Source: an uncultured Candidatus Cloacimonadota bacterium (GTDB lineage: Bacteria; Cloacimonadota; Cloacimonadia; Cloacimonadales; TCS61). From it: a stretch of DNA of 25,481 bases. A program made the position numbers and the translations under genes. The stretch's first letter is position 1. Each line of letters opens with the position of its first letter. A model generated the notes under the pieces. It had not been told where the DNA came from. It made no database searches and saw nothing but the letters and a program-made list of their open reading frames with translations. The stretch lies in contig CAZSOM010000001.1 in the NCBI GenBank assembly GCA_964608295.1, positions 1 through 25,481 of the forward strand, given 5' to 3'. Positions 3 to 23,161 of the stretch are shown piece by piece.

Positions 3-626
3 GTAATTCTGGGACTTCTTATCGCAATTACTTCCATGTTCTGGGGAAGAAGATTCTGTGGATACGTGTGTCCATTTGGTACAGCTCAGGAAATGATCTT
101 CAATTTAAATCCAAACTATAAAAAGAAAAAGCCGCTCAATCTTCCGGTTTGGCTGTACAGATTTCTTAATGTCTTAAAATATGTGATCATGCTCATCACC
201 ATTATAGCTGTTTTCCGTTCCGCCCAGTATGTTTACATGAAGTTTTGTCCGGTGCTGGCAGTATCTCATCCGCAGAATATCACACTTTATTCTTTAGCCA
301 CGTTGTTTGTGATCTTCATTATTGGATTCTTTATAAACAGATTCTGGTGCAGGTATTTATGCCCTTATGCTGCTTTGATGAATGTATTTCAATATATTGG
401 GAAATTACTACATATCAAAACCAGCAAAATTCATGTCAGTGAGGATCATTGTTTAGATTGCCGGTTATGTACAAAAGCCTGTCCAATGCAGATCGTGATC
501 CATGAAGTTAAACGGGTGGAAGATGTGAATTGCATTTTTTGTTTGAAATGCCAACAGAGCTGTCCGGTTGAGAATTGTATAGTTCTTGATACAATTAAAT
601 TGAAGAACAAGAAGAAATTGGATTAA
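3..626 (+). CDS. Membrane-bound 4Fe-4S-binding polyferredoxin (NapH/MauN/CcoG-like), 5'-truncated by the window edge
   Basis: The frame is open from base 3 (VILGLLIAITSM...), so ATG 36 is probably internal. It has two CxxxCP motifs (GRRFCGYVCPFG, RFWCRYLCPYA) between hydrophobic helices and a C-terminal 2x[4Fe-4S] domain (CLDCRLCTKACP, CIFCLKCQQSCP). Confidence 0.88.
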   Translation, partial: VILGLLIAITSMFWGRRFCGYVCPFGTAQEMIFNLNPNYKKKKPLNLPVWLYRFLNVLKYVIMLITIIAVFRSAQYVYMKFCPVLAVSHPQNITLYSLATLFVIFIIGFFINRFWCRYLCPYAALMNVFQYIGKLLHIKTSKIHVSEDHCLDCRLCTKACPMQIVIHEVKRVEDVNCIFCLKCQQSCPVENCIVLDTIKLKNKKKLD

Positions 627-666
627 TTATTGCGTACATAAATACAATTAATAAATGGAGATAAAA

Positions 667-1197
667 ATGAATAAAAGATTAATGATCTTGATCGCAATTT
701 TAAGTATAATTGCTTTCAATGTATACGCGCAGACAGAAGAGAAAATTGAATTAACTAAATATTCCGGTAAACTGAAACAGATAGCCGGAAGTTGGTTTTT
801 GAATACAGGCGAAGATGTGATAGAACTATCACTTGCACCCGATGAATTTCTGAAAGAGAATGAACTCGAACTTACTTCAAAAATGGAATTAATCTTGAAT
901 GGAATAATGCAGGAAGAGCAGCTGGTGGTTCATTCTATCATAATTGAAGAAACTGAACTCAAACTAAGAGATGAAGCAGGTGCACAGTTGTGGCAGATCA
1001 AACCATATTATGTGGAAGCTGATAAATGTATTGGTTGCCGGATGTGTGTTTCGCCTTGTCCTCAAGGTGCAATAACAATGGTAAAAGGTGTTGCTGTGAT
1101 CGATGCTGATAAATGTGATGGTGATGGTATTTGTGCGAATGGTGATGGCAAAAGATACAAAGGCTGTCCGGTAAATGCTATTAAACAAACTGAATAA
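667..1197 (+). CDS. Secreted protein with an N-terminal beta-rich (OB-fold-like) domain and a C-terminal ferredoxin domain
   Basis: GGAG at 657-660 favours ATG 667 over 655. Sec-type signal MNKRLMILIAILSIIAFNVYA|Q, followed by CIGCRMCVSPCP and an atypical CDGDGIC-x10-CP. Confidence 0.8.
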   Translation: MNKRLMILIAILSIIAFNVYAQTEEKIELTKYSGKLKQIAGSWFLNTGEDVIELSLAPDEFLKENELELTSKMELILNGIMQEEQLVVHSIIIEETELKLRDEAGAQLWQIKPYYVEADKCIGCRMCVSPCPQGAITMVKGVAVIDADKCDGDGICANGDGKRYKGCPVNAIKQTE

Positions 1198-1224
1198 ATT
1201 ATTATAAATTAGATTTGGGAAAAA

Positions 1225-3021
1225 ATGAATAAATTATTTTTATTACTTTTGCTCATCGGACTTTTTGTTATCAGTTGTACCGATACTCTTGATAAAACAA
1301 CTAATCTTAACAGCAATCCCCGTATTGAATATTCTTCCTGTACCAGTTGTTATGAATGTGTTGATCTTTTCAACTGTCCCGAGAATGCGATCAAGTTGGA
1401 TAATCGAACACAAACCATGTACATTGATGCAGATCTCTGCACGGGATGTATGGATTGTATCAATCTGTTTTCCTGCCCGGATGATGCGTTTACAATTGAT
1501 GTAGACAATATAAAACCTGCTCAGATCAATGATGTCATTGCAGCATCAGACTCAATTGGGAAGATGAATATTCAATTTACTGCAACAGGTGATGATTCAA
1601 CTACAGGTAGAGCTTTCAAGTATGAACTGGTGCTTAAAGATTCTAATAATCAGATCATTGAGAATGATTTTATCACACCTTTACCGCAAAATGCCGGCGC
1701 AATTGAGAATTGGGATTTGGAGAATTTACCGGAAGACGAACTGGTGACTCTGGAGATTGAAGCATTCGATGAACTTGATCAAGTTTCTCTTCCAGCAATA
1801 CAAGAAGTACAGATCTTGGGTGAGATAATTGATGAAGAACCTCCCTGCTCAATTGATGATATAGCAGTCAGCTCTATGTCTATGAATTCGTTCCAGGTAA
1901 ATTGGACTGCACCCGGAGATGATGGTGATCTTGGAATTTCAAGCTATTATATTGTTAAAGTTCACACAGAAAATATTAATGATTCAAATTGGGAAATAAT
2001 AGAGGAATATGAGCAGAATATAGTTCCTCAAGAAGCAGGAAATGAAGAAGTTATAATCATCGTAAATCTTGATCCGGTTACGGAATATTTTGTCGGGATT
2101 AAAGCAGTTGATGAAGTTGAAAATATCTCTCAGCTTTCTAATATAGCACAAGCGGCAACAACAGCTATTCCAGACGAAACTTCTCCTTCTGCAATTACGG
2201 ATCTGCAGGCTGATCCTACTGACGAGTTGATCGAACTAACATGGACTGCAACTGGTGATGATGGAGATGAAGGAACAGCTTATAATTATGAGATCAGGAT
2301 TTCACAATCGGTAATTACATCAGGCAATTGGAGTGATGCTGAACTTCTGGAAGGTGCTCCCTGGCCTTTGGAATCAGGTTCATCTCAGAATTATACTGTA
2401 GAAGATCTGCAACTTGGGATCACCTATTATTTTGCGATCAAAGCATTTGATGAAAGTGATAATGTCTCTCCGCTTTCGAATGTTCCCGATGCAAGCTTAA
2501 TCAACGATATTACCGCACCGGCAGATATTACAGATCTGGTAGTTTATGAAGGTAGTACATCTAATTTAAGCACAATAAAGATCATGTGGACTGCACCGGG
2601 TGATGATGGATCGCAAGGAATTGCAAATCATTATGAGATCAGGTATTCAACTTCTTTGATCACAGCATCAAACTGGGGAAATGCCACTATCTTCAATGAT
2701 CCACCAGTACCACAAAATGCCGGAACTTCCCAATATTGTTATGTTAATGTGCTGGAAGCTGCAACGATCTACTATTTTGCCATTAAAGCTTATGATGAGA
2801 ATGGTAACGTAAATCAGGTTTCTAATTCACCGGCAGGCAAAATAGTCTTTCAGATCAATACAGGAGCATGTCGCAATTGCAGTAACTGTATTTATGATTG
2901 TAATTATGATGCCATCCTGCAGGGTCCCGGTTATAAATATATAGATCCTGATCTATGCCAGGCTTGTGGAGATTGCACCTGTCCCTGGAATTTAATCTAT
3001 AAAGCAGTTGTTGCATATTAG
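1225..3021 (+). CDS. Lipoprotein: 2x[4Fe-4S] domain, four fibronectin type III repeats, 2x[4Fe-4S] domain
   Basis: Lipobox-like VIS|C18. N-terminal CTSCYEC-x5-CP and CTGCMDC-x5-CP. Four ~110-aa repeats with (W/F)TA(P/T)GDD and (Y)xxxIxAxDE motifs. C-terminal CRNCSNCIYDC and CQACGDCTCP. Confidence 0.85.
   Translation: MNKLFLLLLLIGLFVISCTDTLDKTTNLNSNPRIEYSSCTSCYECVDLFNCPENAIKLDNRTQTMYIDADLCTGCMDCINLFSCPDDAFTIDVDNIKPAQINDVIAASDSIGKMNIQFTATGDDSTTGRAFKYELVLKDSNNQIIENDFITPLPQNAGAIENWDLENLPEDELVTLEIEAFDELDQVSLPAIQEVQILGEIIDEEPPCSIDDIAVSSMSMNSFQVNWTAPGDDGDLGISSYYIVKVHTENINDSNWEIIEEYEQNIVPQEAGNEEVIIIVNLDPVTEYFVGIKAVDEVENISQLSNIAQAATTAIPDETSPSAITDLQADPTDELIELTWTATGDDGDEGTAYNYEIRISQSVITSGNWSDAELLEGAPWPLESGSSQNYTVEDLQLGITYYFAIKAFDESDNVSPLSNVPDASLINDITAPADITDLVVYEGSTSNLSTIKIMWTAPGDDGSQGIANHYEIRYSTSLITASNWGNATIFNDPPVPQNAGTSQYCYVNVLEAATIYYFAIKAYDENGNVNQVSNSPAGKIVFQINTGACRNCSNCIYDCNYDAILQGPGYKYIDPDLCQACGDCTCPWNLIYKAVVAY
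1504..2840 (+). repeat. Four tandem FN3-like protein repeats (about 1504-1830, 1831-2172, 2173-2505, 2506-2840)
   Basis: Each repeat starts D-x-x-x-P-x-x-I-x-D and contains FTATGDDS / WTAPGDDG / WTATGDDG / WTAPGDDG and a terminal I(E/K)A(F/V/Y)DE strand. Confidence 0.85.
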
Positions 3022-3090
3022 ATAATAAAACTAATCAATCTTGTTTGAGATAATCATGATCAAAATGAATATTAAAAATATTGAGGATAA

Positions 3091-3333
3091 ATGAAAAATA
3101 AAATAATAATAGTTATAATTATCTTAGCCGCAATTTCACTTTTCGCGATCTCCAAGAGTAATATTTTCGTAGAATCAAATTCTTGTATAGGTTGTGGAGA
3201 CTGTGTTAGTGTCTGTCCTGTAAATGCAATTGAAATAATTGATGGAAAAGCTGTTATCGATGCGGAATTATGTATAGATTGTGAAATCTGTATAACAAGT
3301 TGTACTTATAAAGCAATAAGGAAAAATAAATGA
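3091..3333 (+). CDS. Small 2x[4Fe-4S] ferredoxin with an N-terminal signal peptide or membrane anchor
   Basis: GAGGA RBS. MKNKIIIVIIILAAISLFA precedes CIGCGDCVSVCP and CIDCEICITSC. Confidence 0.88.
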   Translation: MKNKIIIVIIILAAISLFAISKSNIFVESNSCIGCGDCVSVCPVNAIEIIDGKAVIDAELCIDCEICITSCTYKAIRKNK

Positions 3334-3575
3334 AAAAAATAGGAATAATATTTTTCCTAATTGTGATCTTCGTAAGTATTATTAGCTGTGAAAAAGTGAG
3401 TAATCCTGAATATAATGTAGATAAAATAGCTTGTAATGCCTGTGGAAATTGTATTAATATCTGTCCGCAGGATGCAGTTGAAATCGGTGAAGACGGCAAG
3501 GCAATAATAGATCAAACTAAATGCAATCAGTGTGGTAAATGTATTACTGTCTGCCCGGAAGATGCTATCTATTAA
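3330..3575 (+). CDS. Small 2x[4Fe-4S] ferredoxin lipoprotein
   Basis: ATGA overlap with the previous gene. Signal MKKIGIIFFLIVIFVSIIS|C, then CNACGNCINICP and CNQCGKCITVCP. Confidence 0.88.
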   Translation: MKKIGIIFFLIVIFVSIISCEKVSNPEYNVDKIACNACGNCINICPQDAVEIGEDGKAIIDQTKCNQCGKCITVCPEDAIY

Positions 3576-3587
3576 AGTGTGAATGAT

Positions 3588-4466
3588 ATGAAGAAAATTT
3601 TAATAATACTTCTAATATCAATCTCATTTTCTCAAGGATTTTCTGAGGAAAAGCAAAATAATAACTTAGAAACAAAATCTAAAAACAAGTATTATAAAAT
3701 AGCCAGGTCATTATATCAAAAACCGTTTGGATCAACCTTATGTATACCATTTATCTGGTTAGGTGATTTAGCAGAAAATAAAAGAGTTAAATCTGATCTA
3801 TCCAACGAGCAAAAATTAGAAGATCCAGATCAACGAAGAAAATTCAACTTAACAAACTGGTCACAACTTTCTCTTAAATACTTCACTACGAATGCTGAGC
3901 ATGATATTGAAATAATCACTGGAGCTTCTCAAGATGCTGATAAAATAAAGGCTCAAGGTAAGTTTGGGCTGAATTATCAACATGAGGTAACAGGTAAGAT
4001 AAGTAAGAAACTTTCTTTTAATGTGAAGGATAATTTTTTCTTCTCTGAGAAAAGTCATGAGCGACGCAATTCATTTCTCACAAATGACCTGAAGCTAGGT
4101 TTTCTATATAATCATGAAACAACTTATCTTAACTTCAAATTGAATAATCGTTATTACGATCCAGATGAAACTAATTTCTTATCATTACCAGCCCTGGGGC
4201 AACATACACAACTAAAAATGGTTTCCAGTGCTGTTGTGCATTTAAAACAGAATTTTGGAAATCTGAACCTGAATGTTTATACGAACTTTAGGGATTTGCA
4301 GTATAGATATGTTGTTCCTATAGAAGAAGAGGATGATGAATATGACGCCCACAGAGCTAGAGATTATGATAGCTATACCGATTCTAAACTTTCTTATCCA
4401 ATCATGGATCATCTGAAGATTTTCGGGAGAGTATACTATAAAGACGAACTTAGGGGGAGGATTTGA
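3588..4466 (+). CDS. N-terminal part of a probable outer-membrane beta-barrel protein (frameshift-split)
   Basis: ATG 3588 gives signal peptide MKKILIILLISISFSQGFS. Alternating amphipathic strands follow (QGKFGLNYQHEV, TNDLKLGFLYN). The ORF ends just where the +1 frame becomes barrel-like. Confidence 0.6.
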   Translation: MKKILIILLISISFSQGFSEEKQNNNLETKSKNKYYKIARSLYQKPFGSTLCIPFIWLGDLAENKRVKSDLSNEQKLEDPDQRRKFNLTNWSQLSLKYFTTNAEHDIEIITGASQDADKIKAQGKFGLNYQHEVTGKISKKLSFNVKDNFFFSEKSHERRNSFLTNDLKLGFLYNHETTYLNFKLNNRYYDPDETNFLSLPALGQHTQLKMVSSAVVHLKQNFGNLNLNVYTNFRDLQYRYVVPIEEEDDEYDAHRARDYDSYTDSKLSYPIMDHLKIFGRVYYKDELRGRI

Positions 4467-4509
4467 ATATGACAATAACATTAATCTCTTCAGTTCTCTC
4501 AAAGCAAAA

Positions 4510-4992
4510 GTGCAATACTACAAAAGAATTTCTGCTAAGATCAATAATGAACAGGATCATAACCTGATCACACAATTGCGTTATTCAAGGAGATTCCGTA
4601 ATGGGATTTCCGGTTTTGTTTCCTATATAAACCGTTCTTGTTATGATGATGAAACTTCTCAAGTTTATCGTGTTTCTAATATGCTCAGAGTTCATACGAT
4701 GTATTCCTATGCACTTGAAAACCTTAATAACTCTTATGTCTTGGTTGGAATTAAATATAACCCTGAAAATGAAGGCTCGCTTGGTTTTATTGAACAAAAT
4801 CAGTATCTGGTCAAAGATATTTATTCAACTGTTGCTATAAAATATTCAGTTGATCTTTTTACTTCATACTCAGTGAAAATGGAATATTTCCTGAATTCAT
4901 TACAATCATTTTGGATCAAAGATGAATTTGTAGATTATTATAATATTCATACTCAGAATTTAATTTTCATTGGTTCTACAATAATATTTTAA
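4510..4992 (+). CDS. C-terminal part of the same beta-barrel (frame open from 4417; GTG 4510 is probably not a true start)
   Basis: The upstream in-frame sequence reads TNLGGGFEYDNNINLFSSLKAKVQYY. Amphipathic strands continue to a terminal Phe (GSTIIF*), typical of a BAM recognition signal. Confidence 0.6.
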   Translation: MQYYKRISAKINNEQDHNLITQLRYSRRFRNGISGFVSYINRSCYDDETSQVYRVSNMLRVHTMYSYALENLNNSYVLVGIKYNPENEGSLGFIEQNQYLVKDIYSTVAIKYSVDLFTSYSVKMEYFLNSLQSFWIKDEFVDYYNIHTQNLIFIGSTIIF

Positions 4993-5004: not shown

Positions 5005-5985
5005 ATGATAAAAACATTAATTGAAGGAGCAATTCTAGGGTTAACTACAGGAACAACATGCTTGATCACCTGTTCTCCTATCTACTTGCCTTATTTGATC
5101 TCTGAAGATAGAAAATTAGGTAAAAGCCTTTTGGCTGTTTTGGAGATCTCTGCTGGAAGGTTTATTTCCTATCTTGCTTTTGGCGCTATTGCTGGATATA
5201 CCGGAGCTCAAATTGCTTCAGTTAACCGTGAGTTGTTTACTTCGATTGCCTACATTTTACTCTCAGCTTATCTTGTGCTTTCTGCAGTAAGGACCAATAA
5301 AAAAACTAAAAGTTGTCATGTACCCAAAATGGCTAAATTCACTAAAAGCGGTTTTATCCTGGGGATTCTCACCGGTATAAATTTTTGTCCTTCCTTCTTG
5401 ATTGCACTCTCTAAAGCTGTAGATCTAGGTGGTGCTCTCAGTGGTATGATGCTGTTTATGGGATTTTTCTTTGGAACATCCATCTTCCTGCTGCCACTTG
5501 CCTTTATTGGTCAAATTTCTAAAGTCAGCAAAATGAAACTAATTGCCCAATATGCTTCAATTCTTGTTGCTATCTGGTTTACATTTGCTGGAGTTAAAGG
5601 GCTTATTCATTATCAGGAACATGTTAGATTGGAAGCTCAGCCAGCAAGATTAGTGGAAGCATTTAATCCAAATATACCGTTGGCTGTTGTTGCTTCAAAA
5701 GAAAATTCCGTTTATTTTACATCATTACAAGATTCCTTGAAGAAATACACACCGCAGGACGTTCATTATTTTCAATATCATAAATCAGTACTTGATTCTT
5801 TGAATAAATTTCAAGAAATTGTCTTGGTTATAGACTCCACAATTTTAAATGAGAGTTTCGATAACTATGATTACTTCCAGGTTGAACCGGATTATAATTT
5901 ACCCAGAATGCTAAAATTTATGAAATTCTATACATTCAAAACAAGAACTCATCTGCACTGGGAATTTATTGAAAAAGAAAAATAG
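5005..5985 (+). CDS. DsbD_2 / TauE-SafE-like (CcdA-like) membrane thiol protein with a C-terminal soluble extension
   Basis: About six hydrophobic helices with intramembrane Cys motifs GTTCLITCSP and GINFCP, GR motif in TM2, and a ~120-aa hydrophilic tail. Confidence 0.72.
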   Translation: MIKTLIEGAILGLTTGTTCLITCSPIYLPYLISEDRKLGKSLLAVLEISAGRFISYLAFGAIAGYTGAQIASVNRELFTSIAYILLSAYLVLSAVRTNKKTKSCHVPKMAKFTKSGFILGILTGINFCPSFLIALSKAVDLGGALSGMMLFMGFFFGTSIFLLPLAFIGQISKVSKMKLIAQYASILVAIWFTFAGVKGLIHYQEHVRLEAQPARLVEAFNPNIPLAVVASKENSVYFTSLQDSLKKYTPQDVHYFQYHKSVLDSLNKFQEIVLVIDSTILNESFDNYDYFQVEPDYNLPRMLKFMKFYTFKTRTHLHWEFIEKEK

Positions 5986-6030
5986 TACTTTCAGCATGGT
6001 TGTTAAAATCTCTATAAAATAGATATCTTT

Positions 6031-6082
6031 CCTGTCATCCTGAGCCCTTCGACAAGCTCAGGACAGGCTTAGTCGAAGGATG
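6031..6082. repeat. REP-like palindromic element, nested form (GTCATCCTGAGC / CCTTCGAC family)
   Basis: CCTTCGAC 6046-6053 is the inverted repeat of GTCGAAGG 6072-6079, and CCTGAGC 6039-6045 pairs with GCTCAGG 6056-6062. The same family occurs at 18626-18689. Confidence 0.75.
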
Positions 6083-6144
6083 GAATTATCTCTCATATTT
6101 CTTAGATACATTACTTCTATAGGATTAAATTTTTGCTTATCAAA

Positions 6145-22093: not shown

Positions 22094-23161
22094 ATGGAAA
22101 GAATAGAACTGCTGAAGAAACTAACCTTAACACCAGGAATTTCCGGTCATGAACATAGAGTAGCAAAAATAATGCAGGAAGAACTTGGAAGCATTTCAGA
22201 ATTCTCTAAAGACAATATGGGCTCCTGCACTTTTAAGTTGAAAGGAAGCAGCGAGAAACCAAAGATCATGTTAGTAGCTCACATGGATGAGATCGGGTTC
22301 ATCGTAGCAGATATTCTACCGAGTGGGTTCATTAAAATGCAGAATATTGGCGGTTGGAATCCTAACACATTACTTTCTTCGCCCATGGAAATTATCAATT
22401 CCAAAAGTGATAAATATCCCGGGATCATTGGTGCAATTCCGGTACATTTTCTTAAGAATAGGGAAGACTCCAAACCGGATATAAATAGTATGTTCATTGA
22501 TATTGGCGCAGATTCCAAAGAGGAAGTGGAAAGAGAATTCGGCATCCAACTGGGTGATGAAATAGTTCCAATTTCTCATTTTCATTACGATGAGAATAAA
22601 CGAAAAATGATGAGCAAAGCTTTTGACGACAGAGCCGGTGTAGCGGCAGTGATTGAGATAGGCAAGATTGCTTCAGAAATGGAACATCCGAATACAGTTT
22701 ATTGTGTGGGAAGTGTACAGGAAGAAGTTGGTACACGCGGTGCAACAACATTGGCTAATTACACTGATGCTGATGTTTGTTTTGTGCTGGAAGGCGCTCC
22801 GGCTGACGATATTCCGGGAATTCCTTTTACATCTCAAACAGGAGTTGGTAAAGGTGCTCATGTGCGGGTTTTCGATCCTACCATGATCGTGAATCCAAAA
22901 CTGAAGAATTTTGTTGCTGAATTAGCTGAGAATAACAATATTAAGATTCAGTTAACTGTGCGCAAAGGTGGTAGAACAGACGGCAGACAAATGCACACAG
23001 CTCAAAGGGGAATTCCTACAATTGTGCTGGGAATACCGGTACGTTATGCCCACAGTCATAATTGCCTGAGTAGTATGAATGACTTTGATGAACTAGTAAA
23101 ATTACTGACAGCTATTGTGCAAAATTTAGATGAGAAGAAATTGGGAGAGATATTAGGGTAA
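22094..23161 (+). CDS. M42-family metalloaminopeptidase (TET/FrvX/YsdC-like)
   Basis: AAGGAG RBS and motifs PGISGHE, VAHMDEIG, SKAFDDRAG, SVQEEVG, GGRTDG, RYAHSH. Confidence 0.94.
   Translation: MERIELLKKLTLTPGISGHEHRVAKIMQEELGSISEFSKDNMGSCTFKLKGSSEKPKIMLVAHMDEIGFIVADILPSGFIKMQNIGGWNPNTLLSSPMEIINSKSDKYPGIIGAIPVHFLKNREDSKPDINSMFIDIGADSKEEVEREFGIQLGDEIVPISHFHYDENKRKMMSKAFDDRAGVAAVIEIGKIASEMEHPNTVYCVGSVQEEVGTRGATTLANYTDADVCFVLEGAPADDIPGIPFTSQTGVGKGAHVRVFDPTMIVNPKLKNFVAELAENNNIKIQLTVRKGGRTDGRQMHTAQRGIPTIVLGIPVRYAHSHNCLSSMNDFDELVKLLTAIVQNLDEKKLGEILG

Follow-up and report, generated by a model that had tools for sequence, protein, structure and literature searches.

The gene and its operon

The window analyzed in the present study is a stretch of 25,481 nucleotides (nt) of contig CAZSOM010000001.1 (assembly GCA_964608295.1) from an uncultured Candidatus Cloacimonadota bacterium of the TCS61 lineage. 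An operon at its 5' end encodes ferredoxins with export signals and closes with the gene for a membrane protein of the Pfam family DsbD_2 (PF13386), hereafter the DsbD_2 protein. This protein bears on the question of how Sec-exported ferredoxins receive electrons or iron-sulfur (Fe-S) cofactors from across the inner membrane in a phylum largely without twin-arginine translocation (Tat). We tentatively favor a role as a transmembrane electron relay based on its four cysteine (Cys) residues. The relevant features are listed below (TM, transmembrane helix; ORF, open reading frame; aa, amino acids).

5005..5985, + strand: gene for the DsbD_2 protein with its C-terminal domain, 326 aa, last gene of the operon (stop-free translation, PF13386)
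5005..5604, + strand: six-helix membrane domain, residues 1-200, predicted N-out/C-out (PF13386, AlphaFold2, loop charge, fusions)
5059..5073, + strand: TM1 motif C19-x3-C23, codons 19-23 (invariant in orthologues and subfamily)
5314..5316, + strand: codon of C104, in the basic loop 3-4, predicted to be cytoplasmic (conservation)
5380..5391, + strand: TM4 motif N126-F-C128-P129 (conservation)
5605..5982, + strand: C-terminal soluble domain, approximately residues 201-326, Cys-free, acidic, predicted to be periplasmic with a flavodoxin/CheY-like alpha/beta fold (AlphaFold2, VIA)
3..626, + strand: NapH-like membrane polyferredoxin, 5' end cut by the contig end (Fer4_5, TIGR02163)
655..3575, + strand: four signal-peptide or lipoprotein ferredoxin-domain proteins, at 655-1197, 1225-3021, 3091-3333, and 3330-3575 (Pfam Fer4 families)
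3579..4992, + strand: putative outer-membrane beta-barrel gene, split into ORFs 3579-4466 and 4510-4992 (orthologue comparison)

The operon consists of eight co-oriented ORFs with inter-ORF gaps ranging from -4 to 69 nt. The DsbD_2 gene starts 12 nt after the stop of the barrel ORF, and the gap on its 3' side measures 195 nt. The CxxCH heme motif was absent from all eight ORFs. The NapH-like ORF matched Fer4_5 (E 4e-17) and the NapH/MauN profile TIGR02163 (E 7e-18), and contains two CxxxCP motifs. The ferredoxins begin with hydrophobic signals of the Sec or lipoprotein type that lack a twin-arginine motif. The barrel ORFs matched no Pfam family. The barrel gene is broken into two ORFs here, whereas its orthologues are single ORFs of 400-430 aa; the break may be a frameshift or an assembly error.

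The 195-nt gap holds an interleaved inverted repeat at 6027-6085 of the window (CCTGAGC..GCTCAGG and CCTTCGAC..GTCGAAGG). Its 24-nt core occurred in four copies with 0-3 mismatches in the 2.1-Mb assembly and in none in the reversed control, and the RNA fold z-score of the repeat was only -1.6. This repeat looks like a small element of the repetitive extragenic palindrome (REP) kind. The window also encodes an M42 peptidase at 22094-23161.

The four-Cys membrane domain and its C-terminal extension

Residues 10-190 matched DsbD_2 with an E-value of 3.5e-19 (bit score 69.9, cut-off 24.9; the match spans positions 4-195 of the 199-position profile), and this was the sole Pfam family found at E≤0.01. 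PF02683, the CcdA/DsbD_TM family, gave no match at the same threshold. The family profile searched against PDB sequences at E≤10 yielded spurious helix matches only, with no CcdA or DsbD chain. An initial reading made from the sequence alone (the sequence-only reading) had called the protein DsbD_2/CcdA-like. The DsbD_2 part of this label stood, whereas membership of the CcdA family did not. The descriptive parts of that reading held up in full. The TCxxTCxP and NFCP motifs that it reported are T18-C19-L-I-T22-C23-S-P25 in TM1 and N126-F-C128-P129 in TM4; the extra C-terminal domain of approximately 120 aa without a thioredoxin CxxC is approximately 125 aa long and Cys-free; and the gene is indeed the last in an operon without c-type cytochromes. 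The protein contains exactly four Cys, namely C19 and C23 in TM1, C104 in loop 3-4, and C128 in TM4. A motif count gave no CxxC and no Cys beyond residue 128. Residues ~200-326 were unmatched by any Pfam or NCBIfam family, and the whole protein had no NCBIfam match.

Full-length homologues with 43-90% identity were present in approximately 77 of the 201 Cloacimonadota genomes, and, thus, ORF 5005-5985 is not a chance frame. Named homologues came exclusively from Cloacimonadota. All four Cys were invariant in 29 full-length orthologues (46-82% identity). In these orthologues, the membrane domain is also invariant at P25, P129, and several Gly, Arg, and Tyr positions. Across the wider subfamily, in every architecture including fusions, C19, C23, and C128 were found in 63/63 sequences, and C104 and P129 in 61/63 each. 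The C-terminal ~125 residues retain their length and predicted fold, while the sequence diverges fast (18-42% identity outside the genus of the source bacterium); few residues are conserved, and no Cys or His is conserved among the orthologues.

The mean numbers of Lys plus Arg in loops 1-2, 3-4, and 5-6 were 2.9, 6.6, and 2.9, against 0.4, 1.0, and 0.0 on the opposite side. This strong positive-inside bias argues for an N-out/C-out topology with a periplasmic C-terminal domain. C-out is independently supported by the fusions described below, in which a flavin mononucleotide (FMN)-binding domain, FMN_bind, takes the exact position of the C-terminal domain. We infer the topology from this charge bias and from the fusion architecture.

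AlphaFold2 modeled the full protein with a predicted local distance difference test score (pLDDT) of 83, as six membrane helices, some of them broken, followed by an alpha/beta domain. The C-terminal domain also reached a pLDDT of 83. The best VIA-align match of the latter was BaeR (Z 8.6, root-mean-square deviation [rmsd] 2.4 Å over 87 residues), and dozens of receiver domains followed at Z 7-8. We predict a flavodoxin/CheY-like fold, which is a generic fold class without a functional signature; these top matches do not on their own exclude a thioredoxin fold. Foldseek, which the sequence-only reading had suggested for the C-terminal domain, retrieved nothing from the PDB at E≤1e-3 with either this domain or the full model, and an ESM Atlas search with the domain gave no usable match. 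By hhalign, the domain showed no relation to either the ~150-aa secreted neighbor found in Clostridium or the DUF59 partner described below. Identities as a degenerate thioredoxin, FMN_bind, or DUF59 domain were considered, and none was supported. A receiver-like metal site (D277, K312) was dropped as a general feature because these residues vary in the g24 and g30 genera, and the receiver catalytic residues were not conserved across orthologues.

In one Cloacimonadota family, orthologues of 434-458 aa carry a doubled C-terminal domain (L042:9529-10905, + strand; L041:8937-10301, - strand; also P0104, P0108, and P0110; L numbers are our locus labels). The linker between the two copies has three conserved Cys, C-x10-12-C-x2-C, which would be a periplasmic Cys cluster absent from the window protein.

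Both NCBI and JGI call homologues 'sulfite exporter TauE/SafE family protein'. The gene may accordingly encode a housekeeping transporter unrelated to the operon, such as a sulfite/anion exporter or a metal-resistance permease, that merely sits at its end. In line with this, a 340-346-aa paralogue with an unrelated C-terminus (L062:4713-7668; L063; L064) lies between genes for an M42 peptidase and an ATP-binding cassette (ABC) ATPase, away from the cassette of exported-ferredoxin and barrel genes of the same genome. However, the DsbD_2 protein matched neither TauE nor NicO in Pfam, and its gene has kept its position across 42-90% identity, with gaps of 0-12 nt or overlapping codons at the upstream barrel gene. 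The recurrent, independent fusion of relatives to NapH-like modules also speaks against a mere transporter. We consider this explanation very unlikely and the database label to be probably wrong for the whole subfamily.

Fusions and neighbors in the wider subfamily

Searched exhaustively with HMMER, a set of 1.84 billion cluster representatives contained just 683 matches at E≤1e-3. The non-orthologous matches were of three kinds: stand-alone proteins of ~200 aa, proteins with other C-termini, and long fusions. Nine of the ten long forms tested were fused to Fer4_5, the membrane polyferredoxin domain of NapH/NosR, and eight of these nine had FMN_bind in between. In a tree of the membrane domain, the fusions require at least three independent origins, while the forms with the C-terminal domain group together, which is compatible with a single origin.

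We also scanned species-representative genomes using a narrow alignment, the diverse one being too variable. This yielded 80 loci, 73 of which had a callable DsbD_2 ORF, in Clostridium, Methanosarcina, Methanospirillum, Omnitrophota, Elusimicrobia, Planctomycetes, the candidate phyla radiation (CPR), and other lineages. A NapH-like gene, defined by Fer4_5 and two [4Fe-4S] motifs and checked by Pfam in five examples, was no more than three genes away in 42/73 stand-alone loci and was the immediate neighbor in 35. What recurs is a pairing with NapH-like polyferredoxins and periplasmic redox domains and not with Fe-S apoproteins as such.

Acetogenic clostridia carry a conserved three-gene module (L103:5995-8267 in Clostridium carboxidivorans; also L102, L116, L117, L120, L135, and L147). 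It comprises a four-Cys DsbD_2 protein of 211 aa, a NapH-like protein of 391 aa, the start of which overlaps the preceding stop, and a secreted or anchored protein of ~150 aa. The last of these belongs to no Pfam family and was present in 13 loci.

A second, rarer neighbor is a membrane-tethered DUF59/FeS_assembly_P gene, which lies directly 5' of short homologues in 3/73 loci and in two class-level Cloacimonadota relatives. In four cases (L067:8054-9117, - strand; L068:8234-9276, - strand; L104:5495-6615; L131:5415-6606), the short DsbD_2 gene is translationally coupled to an N-terminally anchored DUF59 gene. A membrane tether is unusual for DUF59, and the side that it faces is ambiguous by charge bias.

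This coupling, seen in Cloacimonadota, WOR-3, and Spirochaetes, may suggest that a Cys-lined cavity moves Fe2+, sulfur species, or a preformed Fe-S cluster outward by alternating access and thereby supplies extracytoplasmic assembly. Metal-ion exporters predominate in the LysE superfamily, to which DsbD belongs (PMC4608589). In addition, soft metals or clusters are suited to a conserved site made up of Cys alone, and an Rrf2 regulator adjoins one of the DUF59-coupled loci. The largely Tat-less state of the phylum also fits. On the other hand, the few DUF59 neighbors contrast with NapH-like genes in 42 loci, and the membrane side of DUF59, as stated above, is ambiguous. Furthermore, the protein has no conserved Asp, Glu, or His transport-site residues, exported-ferredoxin cassettes occur without the gene, and sulfidic sediment presumably already supplies Fe2+ and sulfide outside the cell. 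We regard cofactor export as quite unlikely.

Co-occurrence with exported ferredoxins in Cloacimonadota

We sampled 20 loci across the gene-bearing families of the phylum, with gene context obtained by ORF calling on the fetched loci. In 18/20 loci, the DsbD_2 gene was the terminal gene, on the same strand as and directly 3' of one to five signal-peptide ferredoxin genes. In approximately 15/20, a ~400-aa barrel gene lay immediately 5' of it, often with overlapping start and stop codons. One of the two exceptions (L041) is a two-domain form that adjoins a NosD/beta-helix protein, and the other (L052) adjoins a xanthine-dehydrogenase-type enzyme. A NapH-like gene belonged to the cassette in just five of the 20 loci, in addition to the window, and, thus, the DsbD_2 protein is the sole encoded inner-membrane component in most cassettes.

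In one genus (L050:2283-10342; L051; L052), the ferredoxin and DsbD_2 genes lie directly 3' of genes for a xanthine-dehydrogenase-type molybdoenzyme. It consists of a flavin adenine dinucleotide (FAD)/[2Fe-2S] subunit, a molybdenum cofactor (MoCo) subunit, and a GltD-like Fer4_20+Pyr_redox_2+Fer4 subunit. This enzyme is a possible cytoplasmic electron source.

The DsbD_2 gene was present in 87/201 genomes of the phylum, approximately 77 of them with the C-terminal domain, and in 0/62 genomes of three well-sampled Cloacimonadota genera. A barrel query with a single protein was insensitive and missed barrels adjoining the gene in several genomes; therefore, no strict presence/absence table was built from it. 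TatC (PF00902) was found in 7/201 Cloacimonadota genomes and in 0/13 searched genomes of the genus of the source bacterium, with control genomes behaving as expected.

The sequence-only reading had proposed a maturase for exported Fe-S proteins. Such a protein would act as a CcdA-like dithiol/disulfide shuttle that keeps the Cys of apo-ferredoxins reduced or repairs oxidized clusters, with the C-terminal domain as the substrate adaptor. Co-occurrence with exported ferredoxins had been set beforehand as a test of this proposal. The gene does travel with them (18/20 loci); however, the dependence is one-sided. This tight, one-way synteny and membership of the DsbD superfamily favor the proposal. 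The same applies to the scarcity of TatC, since cluster insertion must then be extracytoplasmic, and the patchy presence of the gene suits an accessory or repair role. Moreover, hhalign aligned the DsbD_2 protein with a CcdA-like protein of the same genome over 56 columns with a probability of 63%, pairing the TM1 Cys.

However, the source genome encodes, elsewhere, a canonical DsbD (DsbD_N+DsbD_TM+Thioredoxin_7, 568 aa), the CcdA-like protein beside a thioredoxin, and a NicO/DUF1007 pair. Standard transmembrane thiol-reductant routes are therefore already present, and the DsbD and CcdA/thioredoxin systems could do the job. Neither the C-terminal domain nor the cassette offers a thioredoxin-like CxxC partner. 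CcdA requires two Cys, against the four that are invariant in the DsbD_2 protein. The fusion relatives have a periplasmic FMN_bind and no Fe-S domains, and, thus, the Cys core cannot serve Fe-S ligand reduction there. Exported ferredoxins are also common in genomes without a PF13386 gene, and since their cassettes persist in such genomes, the protein is not a general or essential maturase. The original proposal is partly supported, through the link to exported ferredoxins and the scarcity of Tat in the phylum. The presence pattern would fit an accessory module. Overall, we consider maturation by thiol reduction to be somewhat unlikely. If the protein proves to be a thiol shuttle or a cofactor exporter, it will provide a first handle on the maturation of extracytoplasmic Fe-S proteins.

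A possible transmembrane electron relay

The reading that we favor is that the DsbD_2 protein relays electrons across the membrane by means of its Cys, through either an Fe-S cluster or a dithiol, and so supplies the periplasmic ferredoxins of the heme-free cassette. We assign this a probability of approximately 45%. C19 and C23 in TM1, C128 near mid-membrane in TM4, and C104 in the cytoplasmic loop would jointly form a redox center, on the assumption that they cluster. The center may resemble that of NqrD/E and RnfA/E, with an Fe-S cluster held by Cys, or that of CcdA, with a dithiol/disulfide. Electrons would enter on the cytoplasmic side, from the NapH-like polyferredoxin or another reductant, and would leave on the opposite, periplasmic side; there, the C-terminal domain, flavodoxin-like and free of Cys, may dock the exported ferredoxins or the barrel complex. 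The NapH-like polyferredoxin is likely to be the functional partner of the DsbD_2 protein.

Of the elements of this proposal, family membership, the invariant motifs, the synteny, and the fusions were observed directly, and the fold class was predicted. The operon of the window opens with a NapH-like gene and closes with the DsbD_2 gene. The four-Cys signature occurs in all architectures, fusion or adjacency to NapH-like proteins recurs, the synteny is kept in 18/20 loci, and DUF59 neighbors are found in five loci. The predicted C-out topology and the NqrD/E precedent described below also favor a relay. In the fold search with the full model, VIA ranked two chains of this kind in its top five, namely RnfA (8ahx_A; Z 8.3 over 140 residues) and NqrE (7xk3_E; Z 8.2 over 138 residues). 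Electron transfer rather than cofactor loading is pointed to because the nearest relatives pair or fuse with NapH-like and FMN-binding domains in organisms without exported-ferredoxin cassettes.

Several points weigh against an electron relay. At an rmsd of 4.8-5.0 Å, the VIA matches to RnfA and NqrE are not decisive and lie within the range reached by chance among helical bundles. PF02508, the NqrD/E-RnfA/E family, gave no Pfam match to the DsbD_2 protein, and hhalign against NqrE and NqrD of the same genome gave probabilities of 0.1-0.2%, and thus no relation at the sequence level. That the four Cys lie close together is an assumption, and donation from a dithiol to a low-potential [4Fe-4S] ferredoxin is thermodynamically awkward. 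Neither a NapH-like nor a DUF59 neighbor was found in 28/73 stand-alone loci, and CPR-type loci have radical SAM and Memo/AMMECR1 genes in their place. Cassettes with signal-peptide ferredoxins and a barrel were found in five genomes that are 95-99% complete, and a search for the PF13386 family anywhere in these genomes found nothing. One of them has a complete cassette, including NapH-like and FN3-ferredoxin genes. In addition, the exported OB-ferredoxin family had full-length matches in at least 25 genomes of the three DsbD_2-free genera. Since many cassettes lack its gene, the DsbD_2 protein is not the sole electron entry point.

In a genome without any DsbD_2 gene, the complete cassette, with genes for an OB-ferredoxin, a NapH-like protein, an FN3-ferredoxin, mini-ferredoxins, and a barrel, is followed by a gene for a Fur-family regulator (L060:9210-9638).

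A bolder form of the electron relay is that the four invariant Cys bind an intramembrane Fe-S cluster. In that case, the subfamily would match NqrD/E-RnfA/E by convergence, as a transmembrane Fe-S 'wire' that stands alone. Through it, cytoplasmic polyferredoxins would be connected to FMN domains in the periplasm of clostridia, methanogens, and other anaerobes, and, in Tat-less Cloacimonadota, to a Sec-exported, heme-free ferredoxin chain that runs through the outer-membrane barrel. We hold this version to be rather doubtful. If the Cys core does hold a cluster, intramembrane Fe-S relays will have arisen independently a second time. The function is directly testable because the four-Cys module recurs with NapH-like proteins in the cultivable and genetically tractable Clostridium ljungdahlii, C. 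carboxidivorans, and Methanosarcina.

Comparison with known systems

CcdA/DsbD_TM (PF02683) belongs to the same Pfam clan as the DsbD_2 protein and shares with it the six-helix 3+3 architecture and the N-out/C-out orientation, which is predicted for the DsbD_2 protein. CcdA has one functional Cys in TM1 and one in TM4, each beside Pro. The DsbD_2 protein has Cys in both helices (C19 and C23-x-P25; C128-P129), but its motif differs from the canonical one, and four Cys are invariant (TM1 CxxxC, cytoplasmic loop, and TM4) instead of two. Moreover, no thioredoxin family occurs in any operon ORF, and there is no cytochrome c maturation context around the gene. PF01578 (CcsA/CcmC/CcmF) was not found in the source genome, which is 73% complete.

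The NicO protein of the same genome (G000:C27) matches NicO with a weak secondary match to DsbD_2. UreH-type nickel permeases are also linked to PF13386. Neither the NicO family nor an H-x4-DH-type motif was found in the DsbD_2 protein. The NicO/RcnA metal transporters of the LysE superfamily share its superfamily and 3+3 architecture (PMC4608589). In contrast to these transporters, its conserved site is Cys-only, and its context consists of Fe-S redox proteins and not urease, hydrogenase, or metal-resistance genes.

NapH/NosR/PceC-type 'NapH-like' systems with FMN-binding domains resemble the present case in that the operon of the window starts with a NapH-like gene, and relatives of the DsbD_2 protein adjoin or are fused to FMN_bind+Fer4_5. 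However, most NapH-like systems have no DsbD_2 partner. The eLife survey of flavinylation-linked systems covers both NapH-like and DsbD systems, the latter defined by PF02683, and places the FMN_bind domains of NapH-like proteins outside the cytosol; PF13386 was absent from the text and supplements searched (PMC8238504).

NqrD/E and RnfA/E (PF02508) are likewise small six-helix inverted-repeat subunits with Cys in TM1 and TM4. Four conserved Cys of NqrD/E hold an intramembrane [2Fe-2S] cluster. By alternating access, this cluster takes electrons from a ferredoxin-like domain in the cytoplasm and hands them to FMN in the periplasm (PMC10643135). The DsbD_2 fusions combine the same triad as the Rnf/Na+-NQR core: a six-helix Cys module with a polyferredoxin on the cytoplasmic side and an FMN domain on the periplasmic side. 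In contrast, the Cys of NqrD/E-RnfA/E are supplied by a heterodimer, whereas those of the DsbD_2 protein are in a single chain, one of them on a loop, and the periplasmic partner is FMN there and a set of ferredoxins in the window.

In our search of the literature on DsbD_2/PF13386, Sec-exported Fe-S proteins, and ferredoxins of Cloacimonadota, neither this protein nor the pairing was described, and no paper on the subfamily was found. What is new is that a known superfamily scaffold carries a four-Cys signature of its own together with a new periplasmic domain, in a conserved context that is also new.

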